DNA from: Verrucomicrobia bacterium UBA1263
GTDB taxonomy: Bacteria; Verrucomicrobiota; Verrucomicrobiia; Limisphaerales; UBA1412
Direction: 5' to 3'
Assembly: GCA_002308515.1 (NCBI GenBank)
Contig: DBVN01000118.1
Span: 26,407-62,496 of the forward strand
Length of the DNA: 36,090 nucleotides
Of this stretch, positions 1 through 30,681 are shown piece by piece. Below the pieces are notes generated by a model, which did no database searches, had not been told where the DNA came from, and saw only the letters and a program-made list of their open reading frames with translations. Each line of letters starts with the position of its first letter. The stretch's first letter is position 1. The translations under genes and the position numbers were made by a program.

Positions 1-734
1 AACACCCGTCCTATCCCTAAACCCACCAGTTTTCCATAACTGGCTTTCGATGTGCTGGAATCACCCCGATTCTCCAATGTAACAAAGAACATATACAGGG
101 CAATATAAACACACAAGATAGTTCCCAGATCATATCCCTCCATGATCGAAAGTCCCGCACCCACGCCGGCTAATGCCACTTTTAACCAGCTTCCAAGACT
201 CATATCCGAAGCCTTTCCGCCTTTTAAAAGCGTTATCATTCCCAGCGCCAACATCGCTCCGCCAAAACAAAGCGGACGCGAACCGAGTCCCCAGCAGGCA
301 TTTGAGAAATTATTGGAATTCAATCCGACAGCTAATCCCCCCATAGCGCATACCCACCAGTTTCCGCCCAGCGCGCGGAAAAGCAATCCACCGCAGAGCC
401 CCGCGAAAAGTGTTGCCAGAAAAGCGTCAAACTTGGCAAACCCCAATGTACCCAACGTCAAACGGATCAGATTCGTAACATTCGGTGGAGCCGCCACATC
501 CTCATTCCCAAGCCAATTCAAATCGTTCCATTGACCCAGAAATGTTCCCGGCAGCTTCCATACATCGGAACTGATCACGCCATACGGTCCGTCATTTGAA
601 AACTGGACTGTGTCCGCGCGAAAAGCCGGATATAACAACACCATCAGCAAAGCGATCAAAACGCCTGCCAATATGAAAAGTCCCCCTCTCATCTTGAGTG
701 GTTGACCGGAATCTTTCGGATTAAAATCTTCCAT
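1..734 (-). CDS. polytopic integral membrane protein, N-terminal ~244 codons (gene runs off the left window edge)
   Basis: This ORF is absent from the supplied track, presumably because it has no stop in the window. Hand translation of the minus strand from the ATG at 734 (alternative ATG at 692) gives an unbroken frame down to position 3; no tta/cta/tca occurs in that phase. The first upstream in-frame stop is at 786-788. The product begins MEDFNPKDSGQPLKMRGGLFILAGVLIALLMVLLYP. It contains several Gly/Ala/Leu-rich hydrophobic helices (GLCGGLLFRALGG, WVCAMGGLAVGL, LCFGGAMLALGMITLL, VALAGVGAGLSIM, ILCVYIALYMFFV). No family recognised. Confidence 0.6.
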   Translation of the reverse strand, partial: MEDFNPKDSGQPLKMRGGLFILAGVLIALLMVLLYPAFRADTVQFSNDGPYGVISSDVWKLPGTFLGQWNDLNWLGNEDVAAPPNVTNLIRLTLGTLGFAKFDAFLATLFAGLCGGLLFRALGGNWWVCAMGGLAVGLNSNNFSNACWGLGSRPLCFGGAMLALGMITLLKGGKASDMSLGSWLKVALAGVGAGLSIMEGYDLGTILCVYIALYMFFVTLENRGDSSTSKASYGKLVGLGIGRV

Positions 735-1003
735 ATAACTGAAGCCATTCTCCCAGAGCTTCCCAAGGATAGCCAGCAAAAAAACTTATCCAGAACCGCC
801 ATTAGCATAGAGATTCCTCATTAATGATTTTCCACAACTCCTTTATCCCGACAGGGTGACAGGGTACATCCACTGTAAATCCCGGAGAATGATTTCAGCT
901 CAAACCCTTTTATAGCAATAAAAGGTAATTTTTTGGGGGAAAGTTTTTAAATTTCATTCAATAACAACAATTTAAATATATTTTTAATTTTTCAAAAAAT
1001 TAT

Positions 1004-1033
1004 TTGACAATCGAATTTTCATGTGTCTTAATA
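1004..1033 (+). promoter_or_regulatory. candidate sigma70-like promoter in front of the toxin islet
   Basis: TTGACA (1004-1009), an 18-nt spacer, then TTAATA (1028-1033), all inside a very AT-rich stretch (about 930-1080). A second TATAAT at 1070-1075 sits only 3 nt before the ATG at 1079. The promoter consensus of this organism is unknown, so this is pattern matching only. Confidence 0.3.
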
Positions 1034-1078
1034 AAATCTTTTCGCAAGAAACAGCGGATCTACGAAAGGTATAATATT

Positions 1079-1165
1079 ATGAGTAAAATGTTTAGAATAA
1101 AAGCACCAGTCTTATCAGCGATTCTTTTTTCTCTGACTTTAGCCTGTGAAGGAGAATACTTATGA
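1079..1165 (+). CDS. 28-codon mini-ORF resembling a lipoprotein signal peptide (possibly a gene remnant or leader peptide)
   Basis: Hand translation gives MSKMFRIKAPVLSAILFSLTLACEGEYL*. It has a basic N-region, a hydrophobic core and a lipobox-like LTLA-C. Its TGA (1163-1165) overlaps the ATG (1162-1164) of the Rhs-tip ORF as ATGA. It is too short to call a gene on sequence alone. Confidence 0.25.
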   Translation: MSKMFRIKAPVLSAILFSLTLACEGEYL

Positions 1166-1881
1166 GTGTCGCATTGTTTCAAAAGAATAATGTCATCACT
1201 GAATCTGCTTGCGGTAACCGTTTTCTGTTCCAAGGCAGAGAGTATGATTACGACACAGCTCTTTACTATTTCAGAAACAGATGGTACGAACCGGAAACAG
1301 GCAGGTGGCTTTCACCTGATCCTATTGGAATTTCTGGAGGTCTGAACCTCTACGCCTTCTGCGGAAATGCCCCCGTGAATTTTGTGGATCCAATGGGATT
1401 GGCTATTGTGAAAAATAGAACAGGACGACCAGTGATTGTAAGCGGTAATATAGGTGATAATCGAGGAACTGGATCGCAATATTATGCTGTGATTCCCCCT
1501 AATCTGAATGGGGAAGATAAAGCATGGGGTGGTTCTGATAACCCTATTTCTGTTTATCAATTTCCAGGAGAAGCTATTGCAGCTTATTTTGGTTGTCCAC
1601 ATACACCTATAGGGGTGGTAACAGATATTGATTTTGTGCCTGGATACGCAGATGCACCATACGAGGATCTTAATTGCGATACTAGCGTACTTTCTCCCAC
1701 AAAAATGTCTGGAACTTCAAGCATGCCAACCTTCGTATTGACGCAAGATGAATTGGGAAATATGGTACTAGAAGGAGAAGAATGGTGGGATTCCCTATTT
1801 ATAGGAGTTCTTGATTTATATTATAACAGATTAGGAGATGGCCCGCGATATTTTGGATATGGTGGACGTTTGCCATTTTAA
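1162..1881 (+). CDS. orphan Rhs tip: terminal YD repeat and RHS core end fused to an unassigned 159-aa C-terminal toxin-like domain
   Basis: Residues 20-80 read NRFLFQGREYDYDTALYYFRNRWYEPETGRWLSPDPIGISGGLNLYAFCGNAPVNFVDPMGL. This is the canonical final YD repeat plus the RHS-associated core ending in PxxxxDPxGL (DPMGL = nt 1387-1401). The remaining 159 aa (nt 1402-1878) have no motif I recognise. An SD-like GAAGGAGA (1148-1155) lies 6 nt before the ATG. The reading frame is closed upstream by TGA at 1147-1149, so no Rhs shell is encoded here. Confidence 0.8.
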   Translation: MSVALFQKNNVITESACGNRFLFQGREYDYDTALYYFRNRWYEPETGRWLSPDPIGISGGLNLYAFCGNAPVNFVDPMGLAIVKNRTGRPVIVSGNIGDNRGTGSQYYAVIPPNLNGEDKAWGGSDNPISVYQFPGEAIAAYFGCPHTPIGVVTDIDFVPGYADAPYEDLNCDTSVLSPTKMSGTSSMPTFVLTQDELGNMVLEGEEWWDSLFIGVLDLYYNRLGDGPRYFGYGGRLPF

Positions 1882-1906
1882 ACGATACAAGAAGGAGGAT
1901 TACTTA

Positions 1907-2227
1907 ATGTATAAGGCATATATTATTCGATCCATTGTTATTATAACAGCACTGTGTTTAGTAGCATGGTATTGTTATGGATTTAATATAGAATTAGATT
2001 ATTACTTTGCTGAAATAGATGTCACAAAGAAAGGAACTAATGGAGTAGAAATTCCAGTCCATTATATTATTGCGACCTATGTTTGGATAGCATTATCCAT
2101 TCATTTTTCACTATTGCTTTTCTTATGGAAGTATCCTAAAGACAGTTTTTTTCGATTATCCATATTATTTCCAATGTTAATACTTTTTATAATGGAATTT
2201 ATCCAATATGGAGTGCAATGTTTATAG
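1907..2227 (+). CDS. small 3-TM membrane protein, candidate immunity protein 1
   Basis: The track ORF 1838-2227 is trimmed to the ATG at 1907, which is preceded by a strong GAAGGAGG (1891-1898). The 106-aa product has three hydrophobic spans (IIRSIVIITALCLVAWYCYGF, HYIIATYVWIALSIHFSLLLFLW, LSILFPMLILFIMEFI). By hand count the region is about one third G+C. Its position directly after a polymorphic-toxin tip is the only functional evidence. Confidence 0.6.
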   Translation: MYKAYIIRSIVIITALCLVAWYCYGFNIELDYYFAEIDVTKKGTNGVEIPVHYIIATYVWIALSIHFSLLLFLWKYPKDSFFRLSILFPMLILFIMEFIQYGVQCL

Positions 2228-2239
2228 TGTTTTTTTAAT

Positions 2240-2908
2240 ATGAAGTGTAATAATATAGAGTGCGGTAATACAGAAAACATCACAGCACTATTTAAGTTAT
2301 TGAAGGGATTATTCTATACGATATTCTTGTTAGTCATTATTTTCCAGTGTCTTTTCACTGTATTGCTTACAGGAAGCTCTCCGGATAGTTTGTTCGATAT
2401 TAAATGGAATATTTTTAAGAATAAATCTTTTGAAGGATATCCATATTTTAGTCTTGATGGACCTCCTACTTCAGAACAACAAATGCTAGAGAAAAAGCGC
2501 GATGGCTATGTTGCAGATGTAAGGAGAGAAGTTATTGGAAATTGGATACTTTTATATGGAATATTTATGCTTTATCAGATTTTTTTCTGGATAAGATACA
2601 TTATCAAATATCGTTACTACGTTGCCATAATTAAAAGACGATTGATCGAATTTGAGCATTGGAACGCAGAAAAACTATGCACATTTTCTGAAAAGAAAGA
2701 AGTGGCAAAAGTTTTATGGAAAAGATGTCTCGTTCTAAATACGTTTGTGAACAAAGATGCAAACGGGGATTTGAAGATCATTTTACAGCTGAAGATGCCT
2801 TATTTTGTAGGGATAGAAGTGAAATACGCGGATGGCATCATCCTTTGCGCAGATGGATCTAAACGTCCGCTTGATAAAGAAATGCGTTCCTTATATGGCA
2901 ATGTGTAG
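2240..2908 (+). CDS. 222-aa 2-TM membrane protein with a soluble C-terminal part, candidate immunity protein 2 or orphan immunity gene
   Basis: The ORF starts 12 nt after the previous stop and has the same AT-rich composition. Hydrophobic spans are LFYTIFLLVIIFQCLFTVLLTG and IGNWILLYGIFMLYQIFFWIRYII. The C-terminal ~90 aa are hydrophilic. No family recognised. Confidence 0.55.
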   Translation: MKCNNIECGNTENITALFKLLKGLFYTIFLLVIIFQCLFTVLLTGSSPDSLFDIKWNIFKNKSFEGYPYFSLDGPPTSEQQMLEKKRDGYVADVRREVIGNWILLYGIFMLYQIFFWIRYIIKYRYYVAIIKRRLIEFEHWNAEKLCTFSEKKEVAKVLWKRCLVLNTFVNKDANGDLKIILQLKMPYFVGIEVKYADGIILCADGSKRPLDKEMRSLYGNV

Positions 2909-2970
2909 TATTGGACTCTCCAGTATATTAATCAGCAGTTGTTTGTACTAACACGCCTTGACACAACAAA

Positions 2971-3000
2971 GAGACGAGGTCCGCAAGCCTCGTCTTTTTA
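2971..3000 (+). terminator. Rho-independent terminator closing the islet
   Basis: Stem AGACGAGG (2972-2979) pairs with CCTCGTCT (2988-2995) around the loop tccgcaag, followed by a T-run (2995-2999). It lies 63 nt after the stop at 2908. Confidence 0.7.
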
Positions 3001-3129
3001 GCGTTTATACCCAAACATCAATAGTGTTAAAAATTTCTCATGGAGTTTTGGGGCTTATCTGAAAAGATAAGATTGCAAGCTTCCCTCAAAATAATCACAA
3101 TAACAGGCAGCTAGTGTAGGATACAAAGC

Positions 3130-5886
3130 ATGGCTACTATTAAGAAACAATATCCGTTTGATGTCATCGAATCCAAATGGCAACGCCTTTGGGATGAAAA
3201 TAATACCTTTCACGCCTGGAACCCGAATGAAGAGAAGGTTCCTCAGCATCCTTTTTGGAAGCGGCATATAAATGAATCAGCGCTTCCGCCTAAGTACTAT
3301 GTATTAGATATGTTCCCCTATCCCTCTGGGGCTGGATTGCATGTCGGTCATCCTGAAGGATATACAGCTACGGATATTCTGGCTCGTTACCATCGGGCCA
3401 AAGGTTATAATGTCCTTCACCCCATGGGATGGGACGCTTTTGGTCTCCCCGCTGAACAATACGCAATCAAAACTGGTCAGCATCCCCGCATCACCACGGA
3501 AGCAAATGTCAACAACTTCCGCAGACAAATCAAATCGCTGGGATTCAGCTACGACTGGAAGCGTGAGGTCAACACCACTGATCCCCATTACTTCAAGTGG
3601 ACACAGTGGATCTTCCTGAAAATCTATAATTCCTGGTTCAACCCTCAAACTCGAAAGGCTGAACCGATTACAACACTTACCTACCCGCCGGAGCTGAAAA
3701 CGGAAGAGGAAAAGCGCGCCTATCGTGACAGCAAGCGTCTGGCCTACGTAGCGGAAGCCCCTGTCAACTGGTGTCCCAAACTGGGAACGGTTCTGGCCAA
3801 TGAAGAAGTCGTGGACGGCAAAAGTGAAGTCGGCGGATTCCCTGTCATCCGTAAGCCTATGCGTCAGTGGATGCTCCGTATCACAGCCTACGCCGATCGC
3901 CTAATCAAAGATCTGGACATCATTGATTGGAGTCATTCTCTTAAGGAAATGCAGCGCAACTGGATCGGCCGTTCAGAAGGCGCGGAAGTCCATTTTACCG
4001 CGGATACCCCTGAAAAACAGCGGATCACCGTCTTTACAACCCGCCCGGATACCCTATTCGGAGCTACCTACATGGTTCTGGCTCCCGAACATAAACTGGT
4101 TGACCAAATCATACCGCGATCCTGGCCAGAAGGCATTCCCGCCAAATGGAAGGGCGCTGATGAAGCTCTTTCTAAAGAGGGATATCCCACTCCCAGTGAA
4201 GCGATTGCCGCGTACAGAGCTTACACAGCCAGCAAGAGCGATCTGGAACGCACAGAGCTTTCTAAAATCAAGACCGGTGTCTTTACAGGCGCTTACGCGA
4301 TCAACCCGGTAAACGGTAAACGTATCCCGATTTGGATCGCGGATTATGTCCTCGCCACGTATGGGACAGGTGCCATCATGGCTGTTCCCGCACACGATAC
4401 CCGTGACTTTGAGTTTGCCAAGAAATTTGAACTTCCCATTATTCCGGTGGTTCAGCCGCCCGATAACAGCGATCCTTATGGTTTTGTGGATGACGGTATC
4501 TCTATCAACTCAGAATTTTTAACAGGCAAAACAACTCCGGAAGCCAAGAAAGCGATCACGGACTGGCTGCAGGAACATCAGTGCGGACACCGCACGATCA
4601 ACTTTAAACTTCGCGACTGGCTTTTCAGCCGTCAGCGTTACTGGGGAGAACCCTTCCCCATCATCTGGAAAGATGGACATCATGAATCTTTATCGGAAGA
4701 TATTCTGCCTCTTATCCCGCCAGAGATGACGGATTATAAACCCACTGAATCCGGCGAACCGCCTCTGGCTCGTGCCAAGGAGTGGACACACCTGCCGGAT
4801 GGAAGCATTCGCGAGACCAATACGATGCCTCAATGGGCCGGCTCCTGCTGGTATTATCTGCGCTATCTCGACGCGCAAAACAGCACAGCGTTTTGCTCAA
4901 AAGAAGCGGAACAGTACTGGATGGGCACGCAGCCTAAAGCTACATCCACCGGTGTGGATCTCTATGTCGGCGGCACTGAACATGCTGTGCTGCATTTGCT
5001 CTATGCCCGTTTCTGGCACAAGATACTCTTTGATCTGGGCGAAGTCAGTTCTCCGGAACCGTTCCATAAGCTCGTCAATCAGGGACTCATTCTTGGCGAA
5101 GACAGCCAGAAAATGTCCAAGTCCCGCGGCAATGTGGTGAACCCGGATGATGTACTGAAGGAATACGGCGCAGACGCTTTCCGCCTCTATGAAATGTTCA
5201 TGGGCCCTCTGGAAATGGTCAAGCCCTGGAACACAAAAGGTGTGGAAGGCGTATATCGTTTCCTTGGTCGTGTATGGAGACTCTTTATCGCGGAAGACAG
5301 TCTGACAGAATTAGAGCAAAACCTGACTTTGGATGTCAGCCAGGCACCCAAACTGGTGGAAGCGCTGAAACTCTCTCCTGATTTCCAGAATGTGGATGCG
5401 ACTCCGGCTCAGCTGAAAGCCATCCACACAGTAATCAAAAAGGTCACTGAAGATCTTGACGGTCTGCGTTTCAACACAGCTATTTCCGCCTTGATGGTAT
5501 TCATCAACGAAGCCATCAACTGGGACGTGAAACCGGCTTCTGTTTTCCTGGATTTCTTAAAACTGCTTCAGCCTCTGGCTCCGCATATCGCTGAGGAGTT
5601 AGGAGAAAAACTGATCCACTTTATGGGACTGGAATATCCCGGCAGCATTGCTTATTTGCCTTGGCCGCAATATGACCAATCTCATCTTGTAGAGGATACT
5701 TTTGAATATCCTATCCAAGTCAACGGAAAACTCAGAGATAAGATCGTTCTTCCCCTGGACGCGACCAAAGAACAGATCCAAGCGGCTGCTCTTTCTTCAG
5801 AGAAGATCACTCCACTGCTGGTCGGAAAGACGATCAAGAAGGTCATTATAGTTCCCAAGAAGATCGTTAATATCGCCATTGGATAA
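3130..5886 (+). CDS. leuS: leucyl-tRNA synthetase
   Basis: Class I aaRS signatures are present: HVGHPEGY (HIGH) and KMSKSRGN (KMSKS). The LeuRS-typical N-terminus [60 protein letters not shown] is present, as is the editing-domain region [19 protein letters not shown]. Length 918 aa. Confidence 0.97.
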
Positions 5887-15252: not shown

Positions 15253-18200
15253 TTACTTGGTCAAACGATAATAACCAGCAGCTTGGCTCACAGGGACTAC
15301 GCACTGATAAGCACCACCCACCAGTTCGCCTTCAAGGATCGTCCAGCTGGCACTGTCGGCTCTCGGAGCTACTTCGAGAGAAGCGCCGGAAGCCGCATCC
15401 CAACGGAGAGTCAGATTCTCGCCATCGAAATCATAGCTCAGTACCAGATCAGTCGGAGTCGGAGGATCCACCCGTTCCTTAATGGAAACATTGGTGAAGT
15501 TGGCGTAAGCATCGTTGCTTGTAGAGCTGTTAGCAGTCACCCACATACCGATATAGAGCGGTACATCGGCTCCCAGTACGCCTTCTTCCCATTCAGCGGT
15601 ATCGACTTCTTCCAGAACGATCCAGGACAAGCCGTCATCTTCGCTGACATAAGCGGTAAAGACTGTACCCACGCGTGTGATGCGCTGCCAATGCGGCCAC
15701 TGAGCCACACTCTCACTGATCGTACCGGTGGTGTCATCTATAGAAGCACCAAAGGCTTGACGCCAGGCTGTCCAGTATCTGGAAGCGGTACTGCCGCTAT
15801 CACGCTGGTCATCGCGCTGGGCTTGTGTCGCAAAGAGACGAGCGGAACCATCATTGGAACCATCGCCCAGGGCTTCACGAGCCATCAAACCTGCTTTGAT
15901 CCAAGAACCGGTGGAAGTACCCACAACGCTGTTCAGCTTCGCTCTGAAGTCGAAGTCTCCCTCAGGAGCCTTCTGCCAGACGAAGTAGCAGCCGTCAGAA
16001 GTACCACGCAGATCCGAGCCGCTGCCCTGGATGTTATATTCACCCGTGGCGGCATTGTAATAGTAGCTGCCCGGAAGTCCCGGAGCCGCGCCGTTCTTCA
16101 GAATATCTTCGCCCACAAAGTCATTGGGATCGGAGGTCGGTTCGACATAAACATACTTGCTGTTATAATCCGCGACCGACACAATGCCGTGATTCTTGAT
16201 ATTATGAGCTGTATTGAAGAGACCGATATAGCCCTTCTTAGGCATGGTGTAATCCAGATTGCCGATCGTACCGGAGAACAAGCCCTGGTTGATCATAGTC
16301 CAGTTGATACCTGTTGAGGAGCGATACGCAGTGAACACATTGCCTTCGCGTTTCAGACGCAGCCAGGCATTGGGATAATTCACATTGCCATTGTTGACGG
16401 AATCGACCAGCGTCAAATTGCCGTCAACGAGTCTCGGCCAGCTTGTGGCTGTGGCTGTTCCGGCAGGATACGCACGCTGCATCACGATAGACTGAGACGG
16501 AGTCGTCAGGACGTTGAGCATCGGAGCATCGAAGTCCAGGCTCGTGCGGTACATGATACCACCTTTCTCCCAGCTTTCCTGAGCAGTGATATTGGTGATA
16601 TGGACCACAAAGTCAAAATCGCCGTCCACTTCCTCATAGAGATAGAAGCAAGCGTCGCCGGCACCTTCCACGTCAGTACCCCAGCCGTTCAATGTCATGG
16701 AACCGGGGCGAACATCCGCGTAACCCAGGGTCCCGATCGCACCGACACCACTGGCTACACCCGGATTATAAACATTCGTCATCTTCAACTGCGTATAGCC
16801 GCCAATCAGAGTGGCAGGAACCATCTCCTTACCGGAGAGATTCTTGACAGAGACAACGACCTTGATCGTTGAAAGAGAGATCACATCGATCGGGTCGATT
16901 TCCAGGAAAGCGGCCCAGGCATCCATATATGTACCCAGTCTGGCGGACTTCACAGTCACACCTTCGATCTTGTAATTGTTCACGTTGACAGAATCTGCAT
17001 GATCCGGCTCTTTATCGAAGAGAACGATCACTTCGTTGCCGGCTCCCATGACATAGTAAGGTGCCAGAGGCGCATCGTCTGAAGAGACACTCACGATCGC
17101 GTCATTGGACTTCACCGTCTTGCCCGGAACAGAAAGTTCGCAATAAACGGCCTGGCCGTCATATTCAGGCAGAGCGCTGATAGTCACAGATGTATCCGTA
17201 GCACCGTAAATGGCATGACCCGCCACATACCACTGATAAGCAACAGGGGCATTCCATTCATTTTCGGACGTACCGGCCACGCTGAAGGTCACCAGATCAC
17301 CGGCCATAGCGGTAACGCTTTCAGGCTGTTTGGTAACTGTAATAAACGCTGTATCCGGGTTGGCATAGATACCGATCATATTACCGGTCAGGATCGGAGC
17401 TGTGTTATTGGCCTGCACCGGGTTGTTGACGTTGTGCCAGGTGATGGAGACAAAGTCTCCGCCGCCGCCTTCACGCAGAGAAACAACATAGTAGTATTTC
17501 TTGCCCGCGATCAGCTGTATCGGGGTAGAACCATAAGTACCGGTAGCACCGCTCCAGTCATATCTGCGAGCGCCGGAGCTGTTCCAGCCGTTCTCCCAGG
17601 AAATCGCTTCTTCAGAGAGATTTTCAACCCATTCATCGGAAGAGATCCACAGTTTGTAATCATCATCGCAGGAACCGGTGAAGTCATAAATACCGGTCTC
17701 TTCAGGAACGATATAACCGGAAATGCGTTCCACACAGTTGTCCTTATTAAAGGTATCGGTGGTGATTTCCAGATATCTGCCCAGCTGAGGGTTGGCATTG
17801 TAAGGAGTTTCCGTAAACATCCAGGATGTTGTTTCAAACAATGTGTCAAAACTGCTTGCGGTACCGAAGGATTCCAGAAGTGAATATCCAGGAGACCAAA
17901 CGAAGGCTGTGAAGGTGGAAGGCTGGGTCAGTTCATAACCGGAATAATCATAAATATTGCTGTATTTAACGGTATAAACCTTGCCTTCTTCCTGATGAGA
18001 AGTCAGCAGGATGACTTTCGTGCCGTCATCGTTGAAAGAGACACCCGTGATTTCAAGACCATCAATGCTGTAATTTGAAATCTCATCGTATCCTATCACA
18101 AACTCACTGAAGCTGATCACGACCTTGTTCATATCGTTGTGACCGGTGGCCACAGCGGTCGGAGCTTCTGTATCACTGGTGACCGTGACTGTGATCTCAT

Positions 18201-20358
18201 TGGAAGAGTTAGTCTTGCCAGCCAGAGCCATATCCAGACGATAAACACCATCGTGATTATAATCAGCCGCGTTGATGAAGGACAGCTTGGGAGTTGTACT
18301 TCCGCTGGCATCCAGCACATTATCGGCTTTGACCCACGCGCCGCCGGTAATGTCATTCTTGACATACCATTGATAGGTGGGAACCACATTGAGATCAGAA
18401 GCATAAGTAACTTTCACATTCAAATCAAAAGCACTGCCCGCAGAAATGACCACGTTGGATTCCGGCTGAGAATCGATATTCAGAACCGTATTGGCAACAT
18501 TGTACAAATCTGTAATGTACTGGGCACCAATGCTGGGAGTTCCATCAGGAATCTGAGCCAGAGGTCCCTCACTCGGCAATGACCAGGCAACCTGGAAAAC
18601 TTCACCGCCGGCAACTTCATAAAGATATGCCTCAAAGTAATAGAGTTCACCTTTGACCAGATTGTAGATGCCGGACTGCTGTCCCGCGTTCTTGGTGAAG
18701 TATCCATAAGTACTCCAATCCGTTTGTTGGCAAATCGGGTCTGCGCTTAAATTCTGAGGATCGCTGTCTGTACTCAGGAAGAACATACCCTGATCATCAG
18801 AAGACAACGCAAAACGGTATTCACCTGTTTCCGGCGGGATCAGATAACCTTTGCAGAACAAACCAAAATAATCATCGTTCTCCGCGTTGTAGTCTAAACC
18901 ATTGGTGACATCTATCACTTTAGTGGGAGCGACACCTTTTCTTACAGTACTGACCAGATCCGAGATACTGGCAGGATAAACCGTATTGTTATCATACCAT
19001 TTGCCTTTGACACCTGTTGTCGTCATGACAGTGAAGTTTCTCTGATAGGGAGCCGCCAACTTGCTGCCATCGGCCGCGGTGATGTTGGAAATGGTAATAG
19101 TATAATTGCCGCCAGCAGCAACAGAAGCGCCTAATATAACACATCTGTTACCTTCAGAAGGAGTCAAAGATGTGATAGCTACAGAAGATCCACCCTCTTC
19201 TGTCAGAGAGTAATTGGACGCATCTGTCAGAGAAGCCGCATCAATGATCTTGTTGAAACGCGCATAGACGACCTTGTCGATCGGATAGTATCCAGCACCA
19301 AGGACGGCCAGTTCATCTGTTACAGCCTCTACATTCAACGTAAAGTTACTAATAGCGGTAGCGATATTATTCTCAACTTCCAGCGTATAGTCTCCGGAAT
19401 CGCTCACCTCTAACTGCTCAAGAGTATAGGAGAATGAAGTTTCATAACTTTGTGTGCTGTAAATGACTTTATCCCCTTTCTTGAGTGTGTAGGTAAACGG
19501 ATCATAACCGCTGACTTTGACATCAAGAGTATAGGAAGCGCCATCGACTACATTGACGACAGCAGGCGGAGCTTTCACAAATTCCGGAGCCAGCTCCGTT
19601 GTCGGCTGGAACTCACTGAACGTGGCAACACTGGTTCCACCACTTTCGGTATGAGATGTCGCCCACATACCAACAGAGAGCTTATAGCCCCATTCTTCAC
19701 AGAAAGCGGTATTACCCAAGGCACCATTGCTCCAGGAAGAAGTATCGCGTTTATCCACTATAGTCCAACTCTTCGCGTCCGAGCTGAAATAACTGAGATA
19801 GGTATTACCATCGCGGCGGATACGGATCCAGGAGGGATAGGAATAATTTTCCGTACTCAGAGTTCTGGTACTATCTGAGACAGTGCCGCCAACAGAGCTG
19901 CGCCAATGAGTGATCCATTTGGACGCGCCGGCGGAAGCATCGTTGCGCAATCCCATAAGGGCATAGCAACGGGCACCACCGTCCTGATCTACAGTTTCAT
20001 AAGCATTGCCTTCCGCGTCATAATCTTCATAGAGGGTATCACCGCCTTCACGAACCATGATACCGGCTTTCATCCATGTGGAAGTTTCCGTTCCCACGAA
20101 GGATTCCATTTTGACCATATAGTCGAAATTGGTATCCGGCTCTTCCAGCAAATAGACAAAATGGAACTGATCCGAAGTTCCCCAAACGTCTGAACCACAT
20201 CCATTGATGATGTATGTATCAGTGCTTGCGTCATAAGTGTGAGAACCACCGGTGGTATTCACACTATGCGCATAAGGAGCGACCTGAGCCTGCGCGGCGA
20301 TACAACCGGCGGCAATCAGGGCACCCGTCAATAATAGACTTTTATTAGTATGATTCAT
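15253..20358 (-). CDS. 1701-aa modular secreted/surface protein (3 ConA-like jelly-roll modules, 2 PA14 modules, Ig-like modules, short C-terminal cap domain)
   Basis: Signal peptide MNHTNKSLLLTGALIAAGCIAAQA, with a possible lipobox AAGC. PA14-type segments are GYLIPPETGEYRFALSSDDQGMFFLS (nt 18781-18849) and ISGYIVPEETGIYDFTGSCDDDYKLWISSDEW (about nt 17640-17740). There are three paralogous modules with G-x-G-S/T-D-x-x-G-x-x-D..F-V and W-x-K-A/G-G-I/L-M-x-R signatures, plus YQWY-type Ig modules. Module boundaries are approximate. Confidence 0.9.
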   Translation of the reverse strand: MNHTNKSLLLTGALIAAGCIAAQAQVAPYAHSVNTTGGSHTYDASTDTYIINGCGSDVWGTSDQFHFVYLLEEPDTNFDYMVKMESFVGTETSTWMKAGIMVREGGDTLYEDYDAEGNAYETVDQDGGARCYALMGLRNDASAGASKWITHWRSSVGGTVSDSTRTLSTENYSYPSWIRIRRDGNTYLSYFSSDAKSWTIVDKRDTSSWSNGALGNTAFCEEWGYKLSVGMWATSHTESGGTSVATFSEFQPTTELAPEFVKAPPAVVNVVDGASYTLDVKVSGYDPFTYTLKKGDKVIYSTQSYETSFSYTLEQLEVSDSGDYTLEVENNIATAISNFTLNVEAVTDELAVLGAGYYPIDKVVYARFNKIIDAASLTDASNYSLTEEGGSSVAITSLTPSEGNRCVILGASVAAGGNYTITISNITAADGSKLAAPYQRNFTVMTTTGVKGKWYDNNTVYPASISDLVSTVRKGVAPTKVIDVTNGLDYNAENDDYFGLFCKGYLIPPETGEYRFALSSDDQGMFFLSTDSDPQNLSADPICQQTDWSTYGYFTKNAGQQSGIYNLVKGELYYFEAYLYEVAGGEVFQVAWSLPSEGPLAQIPDGTPSIGAQYITDLYNVANTVLNIDSQPESNVVISAGSAFDLNVKVTYASDLNVVPTYQWYVKNDITGGAWVKADNVLDASGSTTPKLSFINAADYNHDGVYRLDMALAGKTNSSNEITVTVTSDTEAPTAVATGHNDMNKVVISFSEFVIGYDEISNYSIDGLEITGVSFNDDGTKVILLTSHQEEGKVYTVKYSNIYDYSGYELTQPSTFTAFVWSPGYSLLESFGTASSFDTLFETTSWMFTETPYNANPQLGRYLEITTDTFNKDNCVERISGYIVPEETGIYDFTGSCDDDYKLWISSDEWVENLSEEAISWENGWNSSGARRYDWSGATGTYGSTPIQLIAGKKYYYVVSLREGGGGDFVSITWHNVNNPVQANNTAPILTGNMIGIYANPDTAFITVTKQPESVTAMAGDLVTFSVAGTSENEWNAPVAYQWYVAGHAIYGATDTSVTISALPEYDGQAVYCELSVPGKTVKSNDAIVSVSSDDAPLAPYYVMGAGNEVIVLFDKEPDHADSVNVNNYKIEGVTVKSARLGTYMDAWAAFLEIDPIDVISLSTIKVVVSVKNLSGKEMVPATLIGGYTQLKMTNVYNPGVASGVGAIGTLGYADVRPGSMTLNGWGTDVEGAGDACFYLYEEVDGDFDFVVHITNITAQESWEKGGIMYRTSLDFDAPMLNVLTTPSQSIVMQRAYPAGTATATSWPRLVDGNLTLVDSVNNGNVNYPNAWLRLKREGNVFTAYRSSTGINWTMINQGLFSGTIGNLDYTMPKKGYIGLFNTAHNIKNHGIVSVADYNSKYVYVEPTSDPNDFVGEDILKNGAAPGLPGSYYYNAATGEYNIQGSGSDLRGTSDGCYFVWQKAPEGDFDFRAKLNSVVGTSTGSWIKAGLMAREALGDGSNDGSARLFATQAQRDDQRDSGSTASRYWTAWRQAFGASIDDTTGTISESVAQWPHWQRITRVGTVFTAYVSEDDGLSWIVLEEVDTAEWEEGVLGADVPLYIGMWVTANSSTSNDAYANFTNVSIKERVDPPTPTDLVLSYDFDGENLTLRWDAASGASLEVAPRADSASWTILEGELVGGAYQCVVPVSQAAGYYRLTK

Positions 20359-20724
20359 AACTAATTATGTATGTGACTCTAACATCCACCAAATCTATTC
20401 TGGAATCAGAATAGAAAGCCTTGCGCCAGTCACAATAGTACAAAGCTGGTATCGACTTCCTATAAATGCGCGCACTTTCCCAAAAATCTCTCAATAAGAA
20501 GTTATACAACTTATTCTTCGTCAATCAGTAAAGGTATTATAAAAATAATTTTTTATTTTTATGAGAGCGCATCTATCACAAAGCAGAAACGATTATAAGA
20601 CTCTCTTTGCCCCAGAAAAAGAAAAATATGTCACAAAAAAGCTTTTGGATTCTTGCAAAAACACCCTTTGAAATGTTACTCTGGTGCTGGATGCAGATGC
20701 GCAAACAACAAAAGAGGACTCAAT

Positions 20725-23700
20725 ATGAATTCAAAATTATATTCATCTCTTACTAAAGCAATTATAATTTTATTTGTCACTATGTTTTTATCCCTTTTCA
20801 GTCATGCTCAAAACGTTGCCCTGGAACCGCTCATTCAGAAAGCCGAAAAGGCTTATCAGGAACAGTCATGGGCTGAAGCTGAAAAGGTTTATAACGAGAT
20901 CCTGGAGCACAAAGAGGATTTCTCGAAGAATCAACTCGATTGGCTTCAGCTGCACTATCTTGCGGCAAAGTACCGCAACCGTTATGCGCAATCTTCCTCG
21001 TTCAACAACCGCAAGCTGAGCAGCATTTGGGATGAGATCACGGATCTGGCAAGAGACAGGCACGATGAATTCTGGGCCGAGGTTCAGGAAACGCTGGGCG
21101 ACCTGGAGAAAATGAAACAAAATTTCTATTCATCCCCTTCCGCCCATTATGTGCAAGCTCTGGATTATTGGGCCAGCCAAACAGATATTGAAAAAGCAAG
21201 AAACCGTTATCGTATTTTGATACAAAAAGTTATAGAGAATGCTCTTTCCAATCCGAGCTACCTGCCATTGATCCAGGAAAACATCCTTTTGAACGGAATA
21301 CAATTAATTGAGAAACAAGAGGATCTGCTGAAATTAAATCTTCTGTTGGCCAATCAATATCAACATAAGCCTTTGACGCCGGCTACTTATTATCTCATAC
21401 GCCAGCAATATAAGAAATTGCTTGCTTTTTCTCCAAAAACTCCTCATTATGACCGGGTTCTATTTAACTACGCGCAATGGTTGGAACTGCACGGCAGACA
21501 AATCAAAAACCCCAACAATCAATACAGCTATCTCGCTGATTATGAAGAGGCTCTTACATATTACCAACAAATCATCGAACAGTTCACAAAGAAAAAATCG
21601 CCTCACTGGGAACGCGCAAAGGACAAGATCAAAGCGATCACAGAACCTCAGATCGGGCTTTTAGTCTCCAATCAGTACACGCCCGGCAGTCAAATCGAAT
21701 ATTCCTTGTTCTACAACAACTTGAGCAATGTTCAAGTTTCTCTCTATTCTATTGATCTGAACCGGGATATCCATCCTTTGAAGGATAAAACACTTCATCG
21801 CGGCAGCTATCTGGAAGCTGTTACAGTTCAAAAGAAAGAAGCTGTTTATACAGAAAGTTTTTCACCTGCGACCAATCGCTGGGCGCACTTTCCCAGCAAA
21901 GAGAATGTTTCACCCAAAAATATTTTTCCCGCGGGTGCTTACCTGCTCGAAGCAAAATCCGGAACCAATACCGCGCGTGAGCTTATCCTGATCACAGATA
22001 TCGCCCTTATCGCGAAAAGCGCGCCTGAAGGTGAAAATCTGCTCTACCTGGGCAACGCTTTCAGCGGTGAACCGATCCCTGACGCTGAACTCCATCTGAT
22101 ACACACTTGGAACCATTCCAAGGAGATTTTCTCCAAAGAACAAACATTGCGCACGGACACGGACGGCATTGCCCGTTTTGCTCCACTGGCTAAACAGAAT
22201 TACAGCAACATTCTTGTTACCGCAAAAAGCGCTGATCTGCAAACCCTTCTCTTTTTAGATGCTCCGGAACGACATGATCCGGAAGAGGATTTCAGTGTCT
22301 ATGTTTTTACGGATCGGCCGGTCTATCGCCCACAGGAGAAGGTTCAGTGGAAAACGATCGTCCGCTCCCGCAAGAACGATACATTAAGTACCCCTGCCGG
22401 ACTTAAACTGGATTATGCCATCCACAGCCCGAATGATGAGATCATCAAAAGCGGAACGGTGACACTCAATGACTTTGGCAGTGCCTTTGATTCCCTGACA
22501 CTGACACAGGAAATGCGGTTAGGTGAATATCAAATTGAATTCAAACAGAATGGAACAGCTCTGGAGTGGGCAACGCTCTTTCGTCTGGAAGAATATAAGC
22601 TGCCGGAATACAAGCTCAGCGTCACCCCTACTGCCGAAAATTACCGCCTGGGAGATACCATCCAGACCACGATCCAGGCAGAATATTATTTTGGCGGTCC
22701 GGTGGCAGACGCGGAACTCACAGTGCAGGTACGCCAAAAGAACTATAACCACCACTGGATTCAAATCCGCCGTTATCCCTGGCTTTACGAAGATGATTTC
22801 TCCGGAGGCAACTGGCAGCGCAATAATATTGGTGAGGTCATTTTAACCAAAACGCTGAAAACGGATTCCAACGGACAAGCACTGATCGAGTTTGAAACTC
22901 CGCTGCAAACGAATCGCGATCTGGAATATATCATTAACGCCAAACTCTTAGACAGTGCCGGCCGGGAAGTTGTCGCTCAAAACAACATCAAAGTCACCAG
23001 TTTCAGCTACTACGTTCAGCTGAAACCGACAAAAACGATCATCACGCCGGGAGAGAACGCCGTGATCGAAATCACCGCTGAAGACGCTAACGGAAAGACT
23101 CACAGCGCGCAGGGACAAATCGAAGTGACACGCAAACATTATGTGGAAAGATGGATAGATCCTGCCGGGGACACCGTTGAAGGTGAAAAACTGGATGCGA
23201 TAAAGAAGCAAGTCGGATATGAAAACTTCCCTCCCGCCCCGGAAAAAGGAAAAGCTCCCTGGAGATTGAAATTCAGCAATTACCGCTTTGAAAAAATCCT
23301 GACAAAAGAGGTTTCAACAGATCAAAACGGGAGAGCGCAGTTCCGCTTCCCGTTAGAAAAAACGGGCTGCTATCAGGTAAGTTGGACAAGCGCGGATACT
23401 CTGACCCTGGGCAACGGCGAGAAGATCCCCTGGGACAATATTACCGCCTCCACATCGCTTTGGTGCGCCGATGCAAACACTCGCACGATTCAAGTCAAAG
23501 AACAAGGCATCACTCTCATACTGGATGAAAACCAGGCAAAAGTGGAACATTCTCTGCCGATCATGATACAGACAGATCATCCGGGGCATCATATTCTCCT
23601 TACTGCTGAAGCAAATTCGATCATTGGAAGCCAAATGATCCACATGGAAGGAGATGCTCAACTTGTTGCCGTTCCTGTCACAGAAGCGCATACTCCGAAT

Positions 23701-26649
23701 GTATGGTTCACTGCCACTATGCTGGCAAACGCGAATATTTTTCAGAATTCACAAAAGGTCATCATCCCCTCTGAGAAGAACTTTATCACGATCGAAATGA
23801 CACCAGCCTCCCCTGTTCAGAAACCCAGAGATAAAGGGAAAGTCACACTTCGCACCCTGGACGCGAACGGCAGCCCCATTCAGGCAGAAGTCGCTCTGGG
23901 CATCGCAGATGAAGCTCTCTATGCTATTCAAAGTGAATACGCGAAAGATCCCCGTGAGTTTTTCTCCAATCCGCTGCGCTGGCAGCAGGTACGGACGTAT
24001 AACTCCTTCTGGCGAACGCTGGTATCACACAAAGCTGATACAGAAGAATCCAAAGAAGAGCAGGACGATTTAGCCGAATATGAACATGAGGAAGTTCCAA
24101 TGACTCTGGGCATTGACGGTGCCGCGCCGGCAAGAAGAATGCTCGCGAAAAACAGTGTCATGTCATTAGATGCCAAAGAAACTGCTGATATGGCCTACGA
24201 GATGGCGGAAATGCCCGCACCAATGATGGCCGCCGGCGATGGTGAAATGATCTCTCCGGATCAAGTGACCGTCCGAAATGATTTTCAATCCACGATCTTC
24301 TGGGGGCCAGAAATCGTAACAGATGCAGATGGATACGCGGAAGTAGAAGTGACTTATCCGGATAATCTCACCCAATGGAGATTGACAAGCCGGGCCAACA
24401 CAAAAGGCAGTCAATTCGGTATCCAGCAAGGGGAAGTCCGAGTGCGTCAGCCTCTGATGACCCGTCTGCAAGCCCCGCGCTTTTTCACTGTGGGAGATAC
24501 AGTCCACCTCTCCGCTGTCATCAACAATGACACCGAGAAAGATTTGACCGTAGGAGCTATTTTGGAAATTGAAAATGAAGATATTCTGCGAATGCAAGGC
24601 TCAAAGGAGATAACCATTGCTATCCCTGCGAAGGGAGAACAACGAGTCGTATGGAGCGTTAAAGCACTCGCCCCTGGAAATATCAAAATCAAAACGATCG
24701 TCCGCTCCACTCAGGAAGCTGATGCCATGGAAAAGAGTTATACTGTCTATGCGCACGGTATTGAAAAATTCATTGCCCGATCTGGTAAATTAGATCAAGG
24801 CAGCGTGGATATCATCATGGATCTGCCTAAAGAACGCAAGGAAACTGTATGTGAGATCCAGCTGACACCATGTCTGGCGGCCGGTATGCTGGACGCGCTT
24901 CCCTATCTTTTTGACTATCCCTATGGATGCACAGAACAAACCATGAGTCGTTTTCTGCCCGCGGTCATCGTCAAGCGTACACTCACAAAACTTGGCATTC
25001 CCCCGGAGAGTATCGAAAACCAACTTTTCGGCGGCAGAGAGCAAGATAGCAAAACACCAAGAGCTGAAACGAAAAAGTCATTCTCTCAATTAGATGAGAT
25101 CACACAAAAATCACTGGACCGTCTCTATGACCATCAGCACCAGGATGGGAGCTGGGGTTGGTGGAAGGAAAGCGGAGCGGATCCATTTATGAGCGCTTAT
25201 GTCGTCTGGGGATTGCAGCTGGCCCGATCTGCCGGGATCGATGTCAAAGCAGATGTGCTGAAACACGGCATCCAATGGCTGGACGAACATCTTTCCGCTT
25301 ATGAAGGACAACCTCATATCCAATGCTGGATGCTTCACGCGCTCAGCATAGAAACAAATAAGGACTCCATTAAACATTACGGAGATGTTTTTGATCATCT
25401 TTATAAAAATCGTGAATATCTGACCCCATATAGCAGAGCTCTATTGACACTTTCCGCGGTCAGACTGGAGAAAACTGAGGAAGCACAAATTCTCAGCAAA
25501 AACATTGAAAACGGAGCCATCCGCGATGCCGATCCGGATCAAACCGTTTTATTCAAGCAGACGGACACAACACAAACCGGCGGCGATGATCTGACCACAC
25601 TGCATTGGGATAACAGCCGCGGCGGCTACTGGTGGTTCCATAATCAAATCGAATCAACAGCGTTCTCTATTGCCGCTCTGGTCGCGGCAGATCCGCAAAG
25701 TCCTCTGATTCAGCCGGCAGTAAACTGGATCATCAAAAACCGCAGAGGTACTCAGTGGAACAACACACGGGATACCGCTTTATGTATATTAGCACTCTGC
25801 GACTTTATCCAGGTAAACAAGGAAATTGAAAGCAGTGTACGCTATTCCGTAGAAGTCAACGGCACCCCCGCCGGAGCCGGTCAGATTTCTTTTGCCGATA
25901 TCAGTAGTGGTACTTCAAAAATATGGGTGGACCCTTCCCTGCTTCATGAAGGCCAAAATCATATCGTCATCACCAAACTGGAGGGTGACGCGCCTGTTTA
26001 CTTCAGTTCTCAAATCAAATACTTCAGTATGGAAGAACCGATCACAGCCGCCGGAAATGAGCTTTTTGTAAGGCGCCAGTATTATAAATTAGATTCCATT
26101 CCGACTTTGCTGAAAGGACCTGCCACGCAAAAGACATTGCTGAAAAACGGGGACCACATTGAAAGCGGCGATCACATAGAAGTCGTCCTCACGATCGAGA
26201 GTAAAAACGAGTATGAATATCTGTTTTTTGAAGATCTAAAGCCAGGTGGGTTTGAAGCTGTCCAGACAAAAAGCGGCGCACCGATCTTCATTCGCGAGCT
26301 GAGCGAAACCGGCATTCAACGTCGTGCGGCAGATTCACTCACTTCCGAACTGGAAACTCCCAGTTCTAATCCGAAGATGCCGTTCTGGTGGAATATATCG
26401 CTTCAACCCTCTGCCGATGAAGACTACACTGGAAACAGGCTGTGGGTATATCAGGAACAAAGAGATCAAAAAACAGCCTCATTCATTGATCATCTTTCGG
26501 AAGGTGTATGGGAATTACGCTATGAGTATCGGGCTGAAACACCGGGACAATTCCATGCGCTGCCCGTTTTGGGAGAAGCCATGTATGTACCTGAATTGCG
26601 CTGTAACAGCGATGAATCGCTCATTGATATAGACGAGAGAAATGACTGA
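20725..26649 (+). CDS. thioester-containing bacterial alpha-2-macroglobulin family protein with an N-terminal helical-repeat extension
   Basis: MG-domain signature TDRPVYRPQEKVQWKTIVR. A2M-domain start VRNDFQSTIFW. Thioester site YPYGCTEQTMSRF. I prefer the ATG at 20725 to the TTG at 20653 used by the track. It has an RBS-like AAAGAGGA at 20711-20718, and its product starts MNSKLYSSLTKAIIILFVTMFLSLFSHAQN (signal or anchor). Confidence 0.9.
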   Translation: MNSKLYSSLTKAIIILFVTMFLSLFSHAQNVALEPLIQKAEKAYQEQSWAEAEKVYNEILEHKEDFSKNQLDWLQLHYLAAKYRNRYAQSSSFNNRKLSSIWDEITDLARDRHDEFWAEVQETLGDLEKMKQNFYSSPSAHYVQALDYWASQTDIEKARNRYRILIQKVIENALSNPSYLPLIQENILLNGIQLIEKQEDLLKLNLLLANQYQHKPLTPATYYLIRQQYKKLLAFSPKTPHYDRVLFNYAQWLELHGRQIKNPNNQYSYLADYEEALTYYQQIIEQFTKKKSPHWERAKDKIKAITEPQIGLLVSNQYTPGSQIEYSLFYNNLSNVQVSLYSIDLNRDIHPLKDKTLHRGSYLEAVTVQKKEAVYTESFSPATNRWAHFPSKENVSPKNIFPAGAYLLEAKSGTNTARELILITDIALIAKSAPEGENLLYLGNAFSGEPIPDAELHLIHTWNHSKEIFSKEQTLRTDTDGIARFAPLAKQNYSNILVTAKSADLQTLLFLDAPERHDPEEDFSVYVFTDRPVYRPQEKVQWKTIVRSRKNDTLSTPAGLKLDYAIHSPNDEIIKSGTVTLNDFGSAFDSLTLTQEMRLGEYQIEFKQNGTALEWATLFRLEEYKLPEYKLSVTPTAENYRLGDTIQTTIQAEYYFGGPVADAELTVQVRQKNYNHHWIQIRRYPWLYEDDFSGGNWQRNNIGEVILTKTLKTDSNGQALIEFETPLQTNRDLEYIINAKLLDSAGREVVAQNNIKVTSFSYYVQLKPTKTIITPGENAVIEITAEDANGKTHSAQGQIEVTRKHYVERWIDPAGDTVEGEKLDAIKKQVGYENFPPAPEKGKAPWRLKFSNYRFEKILTKEVSTDQNGRAQFRFPLEKTGCYQVSWTSADTLTLGNGEKIPWDNITASTSLWCADANTRTIQVKEQGITLILDENQAKVEHSLPIMIQTDHPGHHILLTAEANSIIGSQMIHMEGDAQLVAVPVTEAHTPNVWFTATMLANANIFQNSQKVIIPSEKNFITIEMTPASPVQKPRDKGKVTLRTLDANGSPIQAEVALGIADEALYAIQSEYAKDPREFFSNPLRWQQVRTYNSFWRTLVSHKADTEESKEEQDDLAEYEHEEVPMTLGIDGAAPARRMLAKNSVMSLDAKETADMAYEMAEMPAPMMAAGDGEMISPDQVTVRNDFQSTIFWGPEIVTDADGYAEVEVTYPDNLTQWRLTSRANTKGSQFGIQQGEVRVRQPLMTRLQAPRFFTVGDTVHLSAVINNDTEKDLTVGAILEIENEDILRMQGSKEITIAIPAKGEQRVVWSVKALAPGNIKIKTIVRSTQEADAMEKSYTVYAHGIEKFIARSGKLDQGSVDIIMDLPKERKETVCEIQLTPCLAAGMLDALPYLFDYPYGCTEQTMSRFLPAVIVKRTLTKLGIPPESIENQLFGGREQDSKTPRAETKKSFSQLDEITQKSLDRLYDHQHQDGSWGWWKESGADPFMSAYVVWGLQLARSAGIDVKADVLKHGIQWLDEHLSAYEGQPHIQCWMLHALSIETNKDSIKHYGDVFDHLYKNREYLTPYSRALLTLSAVRLEKTEEAQILSKNIENGAIRDADPDQTVLFKQTDTTQTGGDDLTTLHWDNSRGGYWWFHNQIESTAFSIAALVAADPQSPLIQPAVNWIIKNRRGTQWNNTRDTALCILALCDFIQVNKEIESSVRYSVEVNGTPAGAGQISFADISSGTSKIWVDPSLLHEGQNHIVITKLEGDAPVYFSSQIKYFSMEEPITAAGNELFVRRQYYKLDSIPTLLKGPATQKTLLKNGDHIESGDHIEVVLTIESKNEYEYLFFEDLKPGGFEAVQTKSGAPIFIRELSETGIQRRAADSLTSELETPSSNPKMPFWWNISLQPSADEDYTGNRLWVYQEQRDQKTASFIDHLSEGVWELRYEYRAETPGQFHALPVLGEAMYVPELRCNSDESLIDIDERND
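24928..24939 (+). other. CxEQ thioester motif (Cys-Thr-Glu-Gln) of the alpha-2-macroglobulin
   Basis: Codons tgc aca gaa caa sit within GCTEQ. Confidence 0.8.
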
Positions 26650-27061: not shown

Positions 27062-27063
27062 TG

Positions 27064-30675: not shown

Positions 30676-30681
30676 CATAAA

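Follow-up and report, generated by a model that had tools for sequence, protein, structure and literature searches.

A candidate shell-less mini-Rhs toxin operon on a small accessory insert of a gut Verrucomicrobiota genome

What does a reading frame that carries only the very end of a Rhs toxin do on its own, between housekeeping genes? We examined this question in a stretch of 36,090 nucleotides (nt) from Verrucomicrobia bacterium UBA1263 (contig DBVN01000118.1), hereafter the window; all coordinates are window positions, and P and L numbers denote the proteins and loci of relatives in this analysis. Rhs toxins are understood as cargo sealed in a YD-repeat cocoon and delivered via the type VI secretion system, the type VII secretion system or Sec. 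The window has instead a cassette made up of a 239-amino-acid (aa) open reading frame (ORF) with a Rhs core end and a 159-aa tail, followed directly by the genes of two membrane proteins of 106 and 222 aa. The answer developed here draws on the anatomy of the cassette, the family membership of its tail, synteny, indel status, selection and co-variation. With moderate confidence, we read the cassette as a mini-Rhs toxin operon that lacks a shell, is expressed autonomously and sits on a small mobile insert, with a membrane-acting toxin, intramembrane immunity and an allele-matched partner.

The toxin ORF and its parts are as follows.

1162-1881, plus strand: toxin ORF, 239 aa, plug plus 159-aa tail
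1162-1401, plus strand: Rhs C-terminal plug, or aspartyl-protease core (aa 1-80), TIGR03696, two DPxG motifs
1318-1332, plus strand: DPIGI motif (aa 53-57), within the plug
1387-1401, plus strand: DPMGL motif (aa 76-80), plug end
1402-1881 (stop codon included), plus strand: 159-aa toxin domain (aa 81-239), unannotated family

The TIGR03696 model (Rhs_assc_core) matched aa 15-80 of the toxin against profile positions 11-76 of 76 (E 5.5e-24; 84.5 bits, cut-off 32.5), and judged by this profile the Rhs assignment of the ORF is far beyond chance. The core end reads APVNFVDPMGL (aa 70-80), and 18 residues lie between DPIGI and DPMGL. The same two-DPxG arrangement was shown experimentally to drive C-terminal autocleavage of full-length Rhs proteins (PMC8636562). 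A model-made first-pass annotation of this DNA had described the ORF as running through the canonical core end and continuing for 159 aa, which we confirmed, with the core ...VNFVDPMGL stopping at residue 80. It had also let the ORF open within the last YD repeat; here the Rhs core stood and the repeat did not, as the 239-aa protein had no Pfam match, RHS_repeat included, and carries the plug/core only. The ORF begins MSVALFQ, its first ~14 aa are not Rhs-like, and there are only 80 aa before the cleavage motif. Pfam and NCBIfam searches found no signal peptide, PAAR, VgrG-binding, LXG or similar trafficking domain at the N-terminus, and a hydropathy scan found no transmembrane (TM) segment in the toxin (maximum 19-residue hydropathy 1.15).

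Compared with full-length Rhs/YD toxins (Photorhabdus Rhs1, PMC8636562; P. protegens RhsA, PMC8765631), the window protein shares TIGR03696, two DPxG motifs ~17-18 aa apart and a toxin domain that opens directly after the second motif. Unlike them, it has no YD-repeat cocoon, no N-terminal plug and no PAAR, VgrG-linked or other trafficking region, and its plug would need to work outside a shell. The order of a variable toxin followed by an immunity gene fits the full-length Rhs architecture in gene order and synteny; toxicity and protection are predictions here.

Whether the ORF is a gene in its own right depends in the first place on its start, where two further features are found.

1079-1165, plus strand: signal-peptide-like ORF of 28 aa, lipoprotein-type (MSKMFRIKAPVLSAILFSLTLACEGEYL, then stop), whose TGA overlaps the toxin ATG (ATGA)
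1148-1156, plus strand: toxin Shine-Dalgarno (SD) site GAAGGAGAA, conserved in four lineages

The toxin frame is closed 15 nt upstream, by the TGA at 1147-1149, as the first-pass annotation had stated. Its own SD-like site was also confirmed: GGAG lies at 1151-1154, 7 nt before the toxin ATG, and a purine-rich GAGG-type site 6-10 nt before the ATG was conserved in four out of four lineages. The toxin start MS(V/I)AL is kept in diverged relatives, and start, SD and ATGA overlap are common to four lineages and at least three genomic contexts. The absence of an rhs shell gene within 36 kb was borne out by tblastn and Pfam scans of the window: neither a shell gene nor a secretion system was found among the encoded proteins (Pfam), and no second Rhs core, YD repeat or tail copy was recovered (tblastn, Pfam). 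With a conserved start in diverged relatives, a divergent upstream gene and no shell gene, the ORF is free-standing and not the 3' end of a long rhs gene.

The ratio of nonsynonymous to synonymous substitution rates (dN/dS), computed between the window and L007 lineages, was 0.22 for the whole toxin ORF, 0.09 for the plug (dS 1.1), 0.37 for the tail, 0.56 for the 106-aa gene and 0.28 for the 222-aa gene. Toxin and 222-aa gene are under clear purifying selection, and the 106-aa gene is less constrained. Since the plug protein is conserved over near-saturated synonymous change, it should be a translated working domain and not a DNA recombination handle.

Signals for transcription were sought at both ends of the cassette.

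955-1033, plus strand: presumed promoter region, AT-rich, TTGACA at 1004-1009, aligns with L034 and L033
2972-3000, plus strand: terminator-like hairpin, AGACGAGG-loop-CCTCGTCT, then a T run, conserved in L007

The upstream alignment with L034 and L033 holds despite differing flanking genes. The gene upstream of the cassette lies on the other strand, which excludes read-through, and any transcription of the cassette must begin inside the insert. A consensus promoter scan gave 10 sites against 10.5 expected, not above chance, and was not used as evidence; the presumed promoter is argued from comparative evidence and the divergent upstream gene. Of the initiation signals proposed earlier, the SD (conserved) and the AT-rich region (which travels with the cassette) were therefore upheld, and the promoter consensus stayed at chance level. 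The hairpin scan placed the terminator on the minus strand, and TTTTT follows on the plus strand; in L007, from another genomic context, stem and T run are conserved and the loop differs. No known RNA element was found in an Rfam search of 700-3200 at E up to 1. The region upstream in L033 shares a TTTTTCAAAAAA..TTGACA motif with the window.

These signals bear on an alternative in which the cassette is a silent orphan rhs-CT/immunity cassette, its toxin unmade and its sequence kept as a reservoir for recombination into a full-length rhs gene at another place in the genome, while only the membrane proteins are expressed, as stand-alone immunity against the toxins of neighbours. Orphan modules in which core-coding sequence is retained are a familiar finding: Poole et al. 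2011 (PMC3150448) described orphan rhs-CT/rhsI and cdiA-CT/cdiI in Enterobacteria, which lie downstream of the full-length gene, often in arrays. The window cassette resembles orphan rhs-CT/rhsI modules in its core end through DPxGL, its variable toxin, its adjacent (here candidate) immunity gene and the related tails on full-length Rhs proteins of other bacteria. In addition, a Limisphaerales locus (L011, 4900-14035) holds an array of orphan tip/immunity cassettes with a core 79% identical, and a Verrucomicrobia metagenome-assembled genome (L012) has a full-length RHS with a core 78% identical. In four independent assemblies (L004, L006, L008 and L032) the contigs start 40-54 nt upstream of the toxin ATG, within the end of the signal-peptide ORF, and these four assembly breaks suggest a head (end of the short ORF, MSVALFQ and core) that is repeated with different upstream contexts in genomes or communities. 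Yet classical orphans sit behind the full-length gene and mostly lack initiation signals (PMC3150448), whereas the window cassette is an isolated 2.26-kb indel between housekeeping genes, with conserved ATG and SD and with an upstream region and a terminator that are conserved and move with it. A plug dN/dS of 0.09 at dS 1.1 runs directly counter to the needs of a DNA-homology handle, and homology among copies starts within the signal-peptide ORF, not in the rhs core. The window cassette also differs from these orphans in its detached signal-peptide ORF, in a plug under protein-level purifying selection and in having two membrane partners, against one soluble immunity protein there. We regard the silent orphan as unlikely; between the reservoir and the autonomous mini-toxin that had been offered as options, the evidence favours the latter, short of proof.

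What the autonomous gene would deliver is the tail. Alone, aa 81-239 had no match in Pfam, NCBIfam, PADLOC, PHROGs or PDB sequences (phmmer), in agreement with the earlier remark that no nuclease, deaminase, ADP-ribosyltransferase or peptidase motif can be recognised in it. An exhaustive HMMER search with the tail recovered 26 clusters at E up to 1e-3, the query's own cluster included, while a word-index protein search found only two close clusters, the family being visible only by the exhaustive search; a metagenome locus scan with a narrower tail alignment gave three loci. One cluster (P0018) is apparently a spurious repeat-protein match, and in every real match the tail domain begins directly after DPxGL. 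None of the 22 family members in our alignment (A3) matched Pfam or NCBIfam, and the family profile matched no PDB sequence. The positions invariant in A3 are N5, G15, G18, G22, P32, G43, G44, D75 and D77, and the family motif reads VSGNxGxG(H/R)GxGxQxYGVIPP...GG..NP..Y...D(I/V)DFY...K..GD..GP; the last third is variable and usually closes in an aromatic/basic amphipathic helix. An AlphaFold2 (AF2) model of the tail from eight sequences (predicted local distance difference test, pLDDT, 70; predicted template modelling score 0.70) is beta-rich with a C-terminal helix, and Foldseek returned no PDB match for it (best E 1.6, TM-score at most 0.29) and none in BFVD. By these searches the tail is a rare toxin family without annotation, with 25 further representative clusters beyond that of the query.

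The tails were found on three types of carriers. The first are genuine full-length RHS_repeat proteins, P0019 (1023 aa) and P0025 (1744 aa), and the second are orphan-like fragments. The third and recurrent type (P0009, P0017, P0023, P0028 and P0029) combines a canonical signal peptide (AxA cleavage sites) with the last ~45 plug residues and the tail. The profile and fold searches proposed in the first-pass annotation thus assign the core to TIGR03696 and the tail to no characterised family or fold, in line with its suggestion of an undescribed toxin family, here a recurrent family of unannotated clusters. It had named, as evidence that would speak against it, a tail from a characterised family and homologues that occur only as 3' ends of long rhs genes; the tail matched none and short signal-peptide forms exist, and none of the computational counter-evidence it had named was obtained. 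The head of P0025, a signal peptide at the N-terminus and a Peptidase_C39 domain, is unusual for a Rhs toxin. Several of the cassettes in L011 open with the junction peptide MKRATDIFPGLK, which also heads the chimeric family member P0006.

As for the activity of the tail, we have a slight preference for a metal-dependent enzyme with a membrane-linked substrate over a pore, because the family has an invariant DxD on one strand face, an invariant Asn and no hydrophobic segment. The hydrophobic helical hairpin or bundle that is the hallmark of pore formers was not seen in the tail: no segment reached the TM threshold, the AF2 model is mostly beta, and no PDB fold was matched. Two features would still suit a membrane-permeabilising role, namely the glycine-rich SGNxGxGxGxG stretch and the hydrophobic nature of the candidate immunity protein. 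The DxD was also considered as colicin M-like, HAD-like or glycosyltransferase-like, and these readings were dropped, as the surrounding motifs do not fit.

The view that the toxin acts at the membrane comes from the genes that follow it.

1891-1898, plus strand: SD GAAGGAGG of the 106-aa gene, a strong site
1907-2227, plus strand: 106-aa membrane protein with 3 TM segments (hydropathy scan, synteny), family-level immunity candidate
2240-2908, plus strand: 222-aa protein with 2 TM segments (aa 24-42, 98-116) and a basic C-terminal domain of ~105 aa, lineage-specific partner

Two membrane proteins right after the toxin had been predicted, and hydropathy agreed, with 3 TM segments in the 106-aa and 2 in the 222-aa protein. 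A small polytopic membrane protein (95-116 aa, 2-3 hydrophobic segments) was found directly after the tail in four independent lineages: 106 aa in the window, 116 aa in L010, 95 aa in L029 (after a signal-peptide short form) and 100 aa in L030/L031 (after a full-length RHS). No sequence similarity was detectable among the small membrane proteins of these four lineages. The idea that the membrane partners hint at an envelope or membrane target gains support from this conserved neighbour of the tail family elsewhere. We infer that the 106-aa protein is a candidate for the family-level immunity factor and that the target lies at the membrane level, because the pattern matches the immunity proteins of membrane-acting toxins such as the contact-dependent growth inhibition (CDI) ionophores (PMC11630599). 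For the 106-aa gene, public annotations disagree on the length (129 or 106 aa), as an alternative start at 1838 (1838-2227, 129 aa) lies inside the toxin ORF; the 106-aa start has the strong SD, and this form is called in the diverged L007 lineage. The 222-aa gene was found only with the window-type cassette, and there in both genomic contexts. Its protein had no family match in Pfam, NCBIfam, PADLOC or PHROGs, and its single-sequence AF2 model was poor (pLDDT 57).

The CDI ionophores (PMC11630599) and Tse5 (PMC9637101, PMC10684867) likewise have a very hydrophobic immunity protein of ~70-116 aa directly downstream, and their toxin variation is concentrated where the partner is expected to bind. 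Their toxins are helical bundles with membrane-spanning hydrophobic helices, whereas the window domain is predicted to be beta-rich, with an invariant DxD and no hydrophobic segment. Between these toxins and the window domain there is no sequence or fold similarity.

We then compared the window with L035, where the differences fall mainly in two patches.

1747-1818, plus strand: toxin hypervariable patch (aa 196-219; last beta-hairpin and C-terminal helix), window vs L035
2591-2689, plus strand: juxtamembrane variable patch of the 222-aa protein (aa 118-150), window vs L035

The toxin patch differed at 15/75 nt, with near-identical flanks, and the 222-aa patch at 19/99 nt, while only 8 differences were scored over the 672 aligned positions between the patches, and 1/321 nt in the 106-aa gene. 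Across nine loci (the window and eight related loci), each of the toxin alleles A, B and C went without exception with one allele (a, b or c) of the 222-aa patch: A-a in the window and L037; B-b in L001, L002, L004, L035 and L036; C-c in L007 and L008. L035 and L037, two haplotypes with recombination elsewhere, keep the pairing as well. In the toxin patch the proportion of nonsynonymous differences (pN 0.18) exceeded that of synonymous ones (pS 0.11); the 222-aa patch had a pS of 0.35 and resembles an imported old allele. This patch is probably cytoplasmic by the positive-inside rule, as it lies just past TM2 in a strongly basic stretch. The co-variation is suggestive of a contact between the C-terminal hairpin/helix of the toxin and the juxtamembrane helix of the 222-aa protein.

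Upstream of the toxin, the 28-aa ORF (1079-1165) aligns in DNA with the in-frame lipoprotein signal peptide of P0032 (L033), whose core is 89% identical to that of the window; on this alignment, the window form derives from a signal-peptide-bearing mini-Rhs via deletion and frame change. In P0032 itself (L033 195-599, 134 aa), a lipoprotein signal peptide is followed by a short YD remnant and then by the plug; the protein stops three residues past DPMG, which makes it a toxin-less mini-Rhs. An open frame of 28-30 codons with the ATGA overlap and the internal SD is also present in L007/L009 and L034 and, in part (its end), in L032. The dN/dS of the ORF between window and L007 lineages was 1.08, and a value of ~1 fits either selection on the open frame, as in translational coupling, or slow decay. 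In L005 the first ATG of this ORF is CTG, and an in-frame ATG at 1088 remains. L032 (41-367) carries the same MSVALFQ head and plug with another tail of only 28 aa (P0030), followed by a soluble 126-aa ORF and a 244-aa ORF that looks Sel1/TPR-like by eye. Judged from the sequence of P0030, the short head with its swapped tail is itself a polymorphic-toxin carrier.

Signal peptide and toxin might also be joined in translation, by a -1/+2 shift or a hop at UUA-UGA, to give a Sec-exported and possibly lipidated mini-Rhs. The 28-30-codon frame has indeed stayed open and signal-peptide-like in four lineages despite neutral-looking substitution, TTATGAGT is invariant, and in-frame versions exist (P0032 in L033; P0009, P0017, P0023, P0028, P0029). 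Nevertheless, the overlap has no slippery heptamer, and no RNA structure is conserved downstream of it (consensus -6 kcal/mol). A -1 slip would leave the tRNAs poorly re-paired, conservation does not extend to the lipobox cysteine, and the conserved SD right before the ATG fits ordinary initiation or termination-reinitiation. We consider such a fusion highly improbable.

Sec-dependent short polymorphic toxins are known from myxobacteria (SitA lipoprotein toxins, PMC5562445) and Neisseria (MafB, PMC4287609). P0009, P0017, P0023, P0028, P0029 and P0032 are built alike, a swappable toxin following a signal peptide and a short conserved N-terminal segment, but this segment here is a Rhs plug remnant, and the signal peptide of the window cassette lies in another frame. 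Homology to SitA or MafB was not seen in Pfam and NCBIfam scans of the window proteins, which gave only Rhs-core models; no direct comparison was run.

The autonomy of the cassette is matched by its genomic boundaries.

792-3053, plus strand: accessory insert with the entire cassette, AT-rich, 2.26 kb
785-790, unstranded: CTTATC direct repeat, left copy, insertion junction
3054-3059, unstranded: CTTATC direct repeat, right copy, insertion junction

L038 and L039 are empty sites, in which the gene of a 901-aa membrane protein and leuS are separated by ~80 nt (L038 4920-5001; L039 2977-3058). They are close relatives, as their LeuS falls in the same 90% cluster as that of the window. Homology of the window with both ends at 791 and picks up again at 3054, and CTTATC is present in one copy in the empty sites and at either end of the insert. 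The cassette is thus a presence/absence polymorphism of 2.26 kb in a gut Verrucomicrobiota genome, inserted in the divergent promoter region of the 901-aa gene, between that gene and leuS. The ORFs at 1079-2908 have a guanine-plus-cytosine content of 36%, against 46% for the window. Apart from the 6-bp direct repeat, no terminal inverted repeats, transposase or mobility genes were found in the insert. Elsewhere the same module adjoins an acyl-CoA dehydrogenase gene (L007) and a sugar-transferase gene (L034). The insert at 792-3053 is best explained as a self-contained operon that moves horizontally and encodes a 'mini-Rhs' polymorphic toxin without a shell.

A small accessory island of this kind, present in some genomes and absent from others, could also be an intracellular addiction or defence module, in which an unexported toxin hits the producer's own membrane when labile or titrated partners fail, and thereby stabilises the island or aborts phage. 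The detached signal peptide, a state maintained in four lineages, would suit such a module, as would the predicted cytoplasmic side of the co-varying 222-aa patch and the lack of secretion genes nearby. Set against this, the tail family is otherwise found on exported carriers (the signal-peptide RHS P0025; the short forms with AxA sites), PADLOC gave no match, and toxin-immunity pairs that act between bacteria typically show polymorphism with matching partner alleles. To us this role looks distinctly improbable.

In the mini-Rhs operon that we favour, the gene order would be promoter (~1004-1033), 28-aa ORF, toxin, 106-aa 3-TM protein, 222-aa 2-TM protein and terminator, the 28-aa ORF being what is left of a lipoprotein signal peptide that became detached. 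The toxin would be translated from its own start, and the plug, if still able to cut after Leu80, would release the tail domain, whose site of action may be the cytoplasmic membrane, either the bilayer as such or a target embedded in it. The small polytopic protein would protect the producer by neutralising the toxin within the membrane, and the juxtamembrane helix of the 222-aa protein may contact the variable hairpin/helix of the toxin as a second, allele-specific immunity or docking factor. Expression, self-cleavage, the membrane target and the roles of both partners are predictions from sequence and comparison.

Several points weigh against this proposal. The main gap is delivery, as the toxin has no in-frame signal peptide or known trafficking domain and the window no secretion system. 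A plug normally sits inside the shell, and here it would have to fold and cleave without one. The equivalence of the small membrane proteins is argued from position, size and topology, and the haplotypes are linked loci, so that their co-variation is no formal statistical test. Moreover, the tail model is moderately confident (pLDDT 70), with the co-varying patch in its weaker part.

A bolder version of the proposal, which we rate as a long shot, would make the locus a complete minimal toxin-delivery system of a new type. In it the toxin, having lost its signal peptide, would be docked at the inner face of the membrane and exported or released by the allele-matched 222-aa partner, the signal-peptide remnant would serve as a translational coupler or helper and the plug as a shell-independent release module, and the toxin would have a new fold and activity.

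The remaining genes of the window are leuS and those of a DUF3616 protein, an AddB-like nuclease, ilvN, large Ig/PA14 and alpha-2-macroglobulin proteins and a menaquinone operon. Window 1-734 (minus strand) encodes the N-terminus of the 901-aa polytopic membrane protein, which has no Pfam family and whose conserved neighbour in relatives is a Laminin_G_3 giant protein. The region 15253-26649 holds a head-to-head pair, namely a surface-type protein of 1701 aa (PA14/Ig/GLEYA) and a bacterial alpha-2-macroglobulin of 1998 aa. A menaquinone biosynthesis-like operon (thioesterase, isochorismate synthase, MenD-like, MenB-like, MenC-like, MenE-like) occupies 26642-32924, and a 996-aa Ig-repeat protein 33064-36054.

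Rhs polymorphic toxins with immunity are known, and NCBI labels the relatives 'RHS repeat-associated core domain-containing protein'. New here are an unannotated toxin family with candidate intramembrane immunity, a recurrent cocoon-less architecture, a detached signal-peptide ORF, a discrete indel and the two-patch co-variation. The last three, and the recurrence of the tail as a family that full-length RHS proteins also carry, had been missed in the first-pass annotation. If the toxin were inactive or silent, the locus would be an unusual orphan and nothing more. Comparison of occupied with empty sites offers a clean case, from an uncultured gut lineage, of a toxin cassette that moves as one unit of 2.3 kb, and the natural allele pairs (A/B/C with a/b/c) are ready material to map the toxin-partner interface. 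An intramembrane protein as the conserved partner of the tail family would point to a membrane-level activity without fold precedent in the PDB. Finally, the window locus and its relatives share a recurrent layout that drops the cocoon and retains the self-cleaving plug, which raises the possibility that the plug may work as an autonomous release module.

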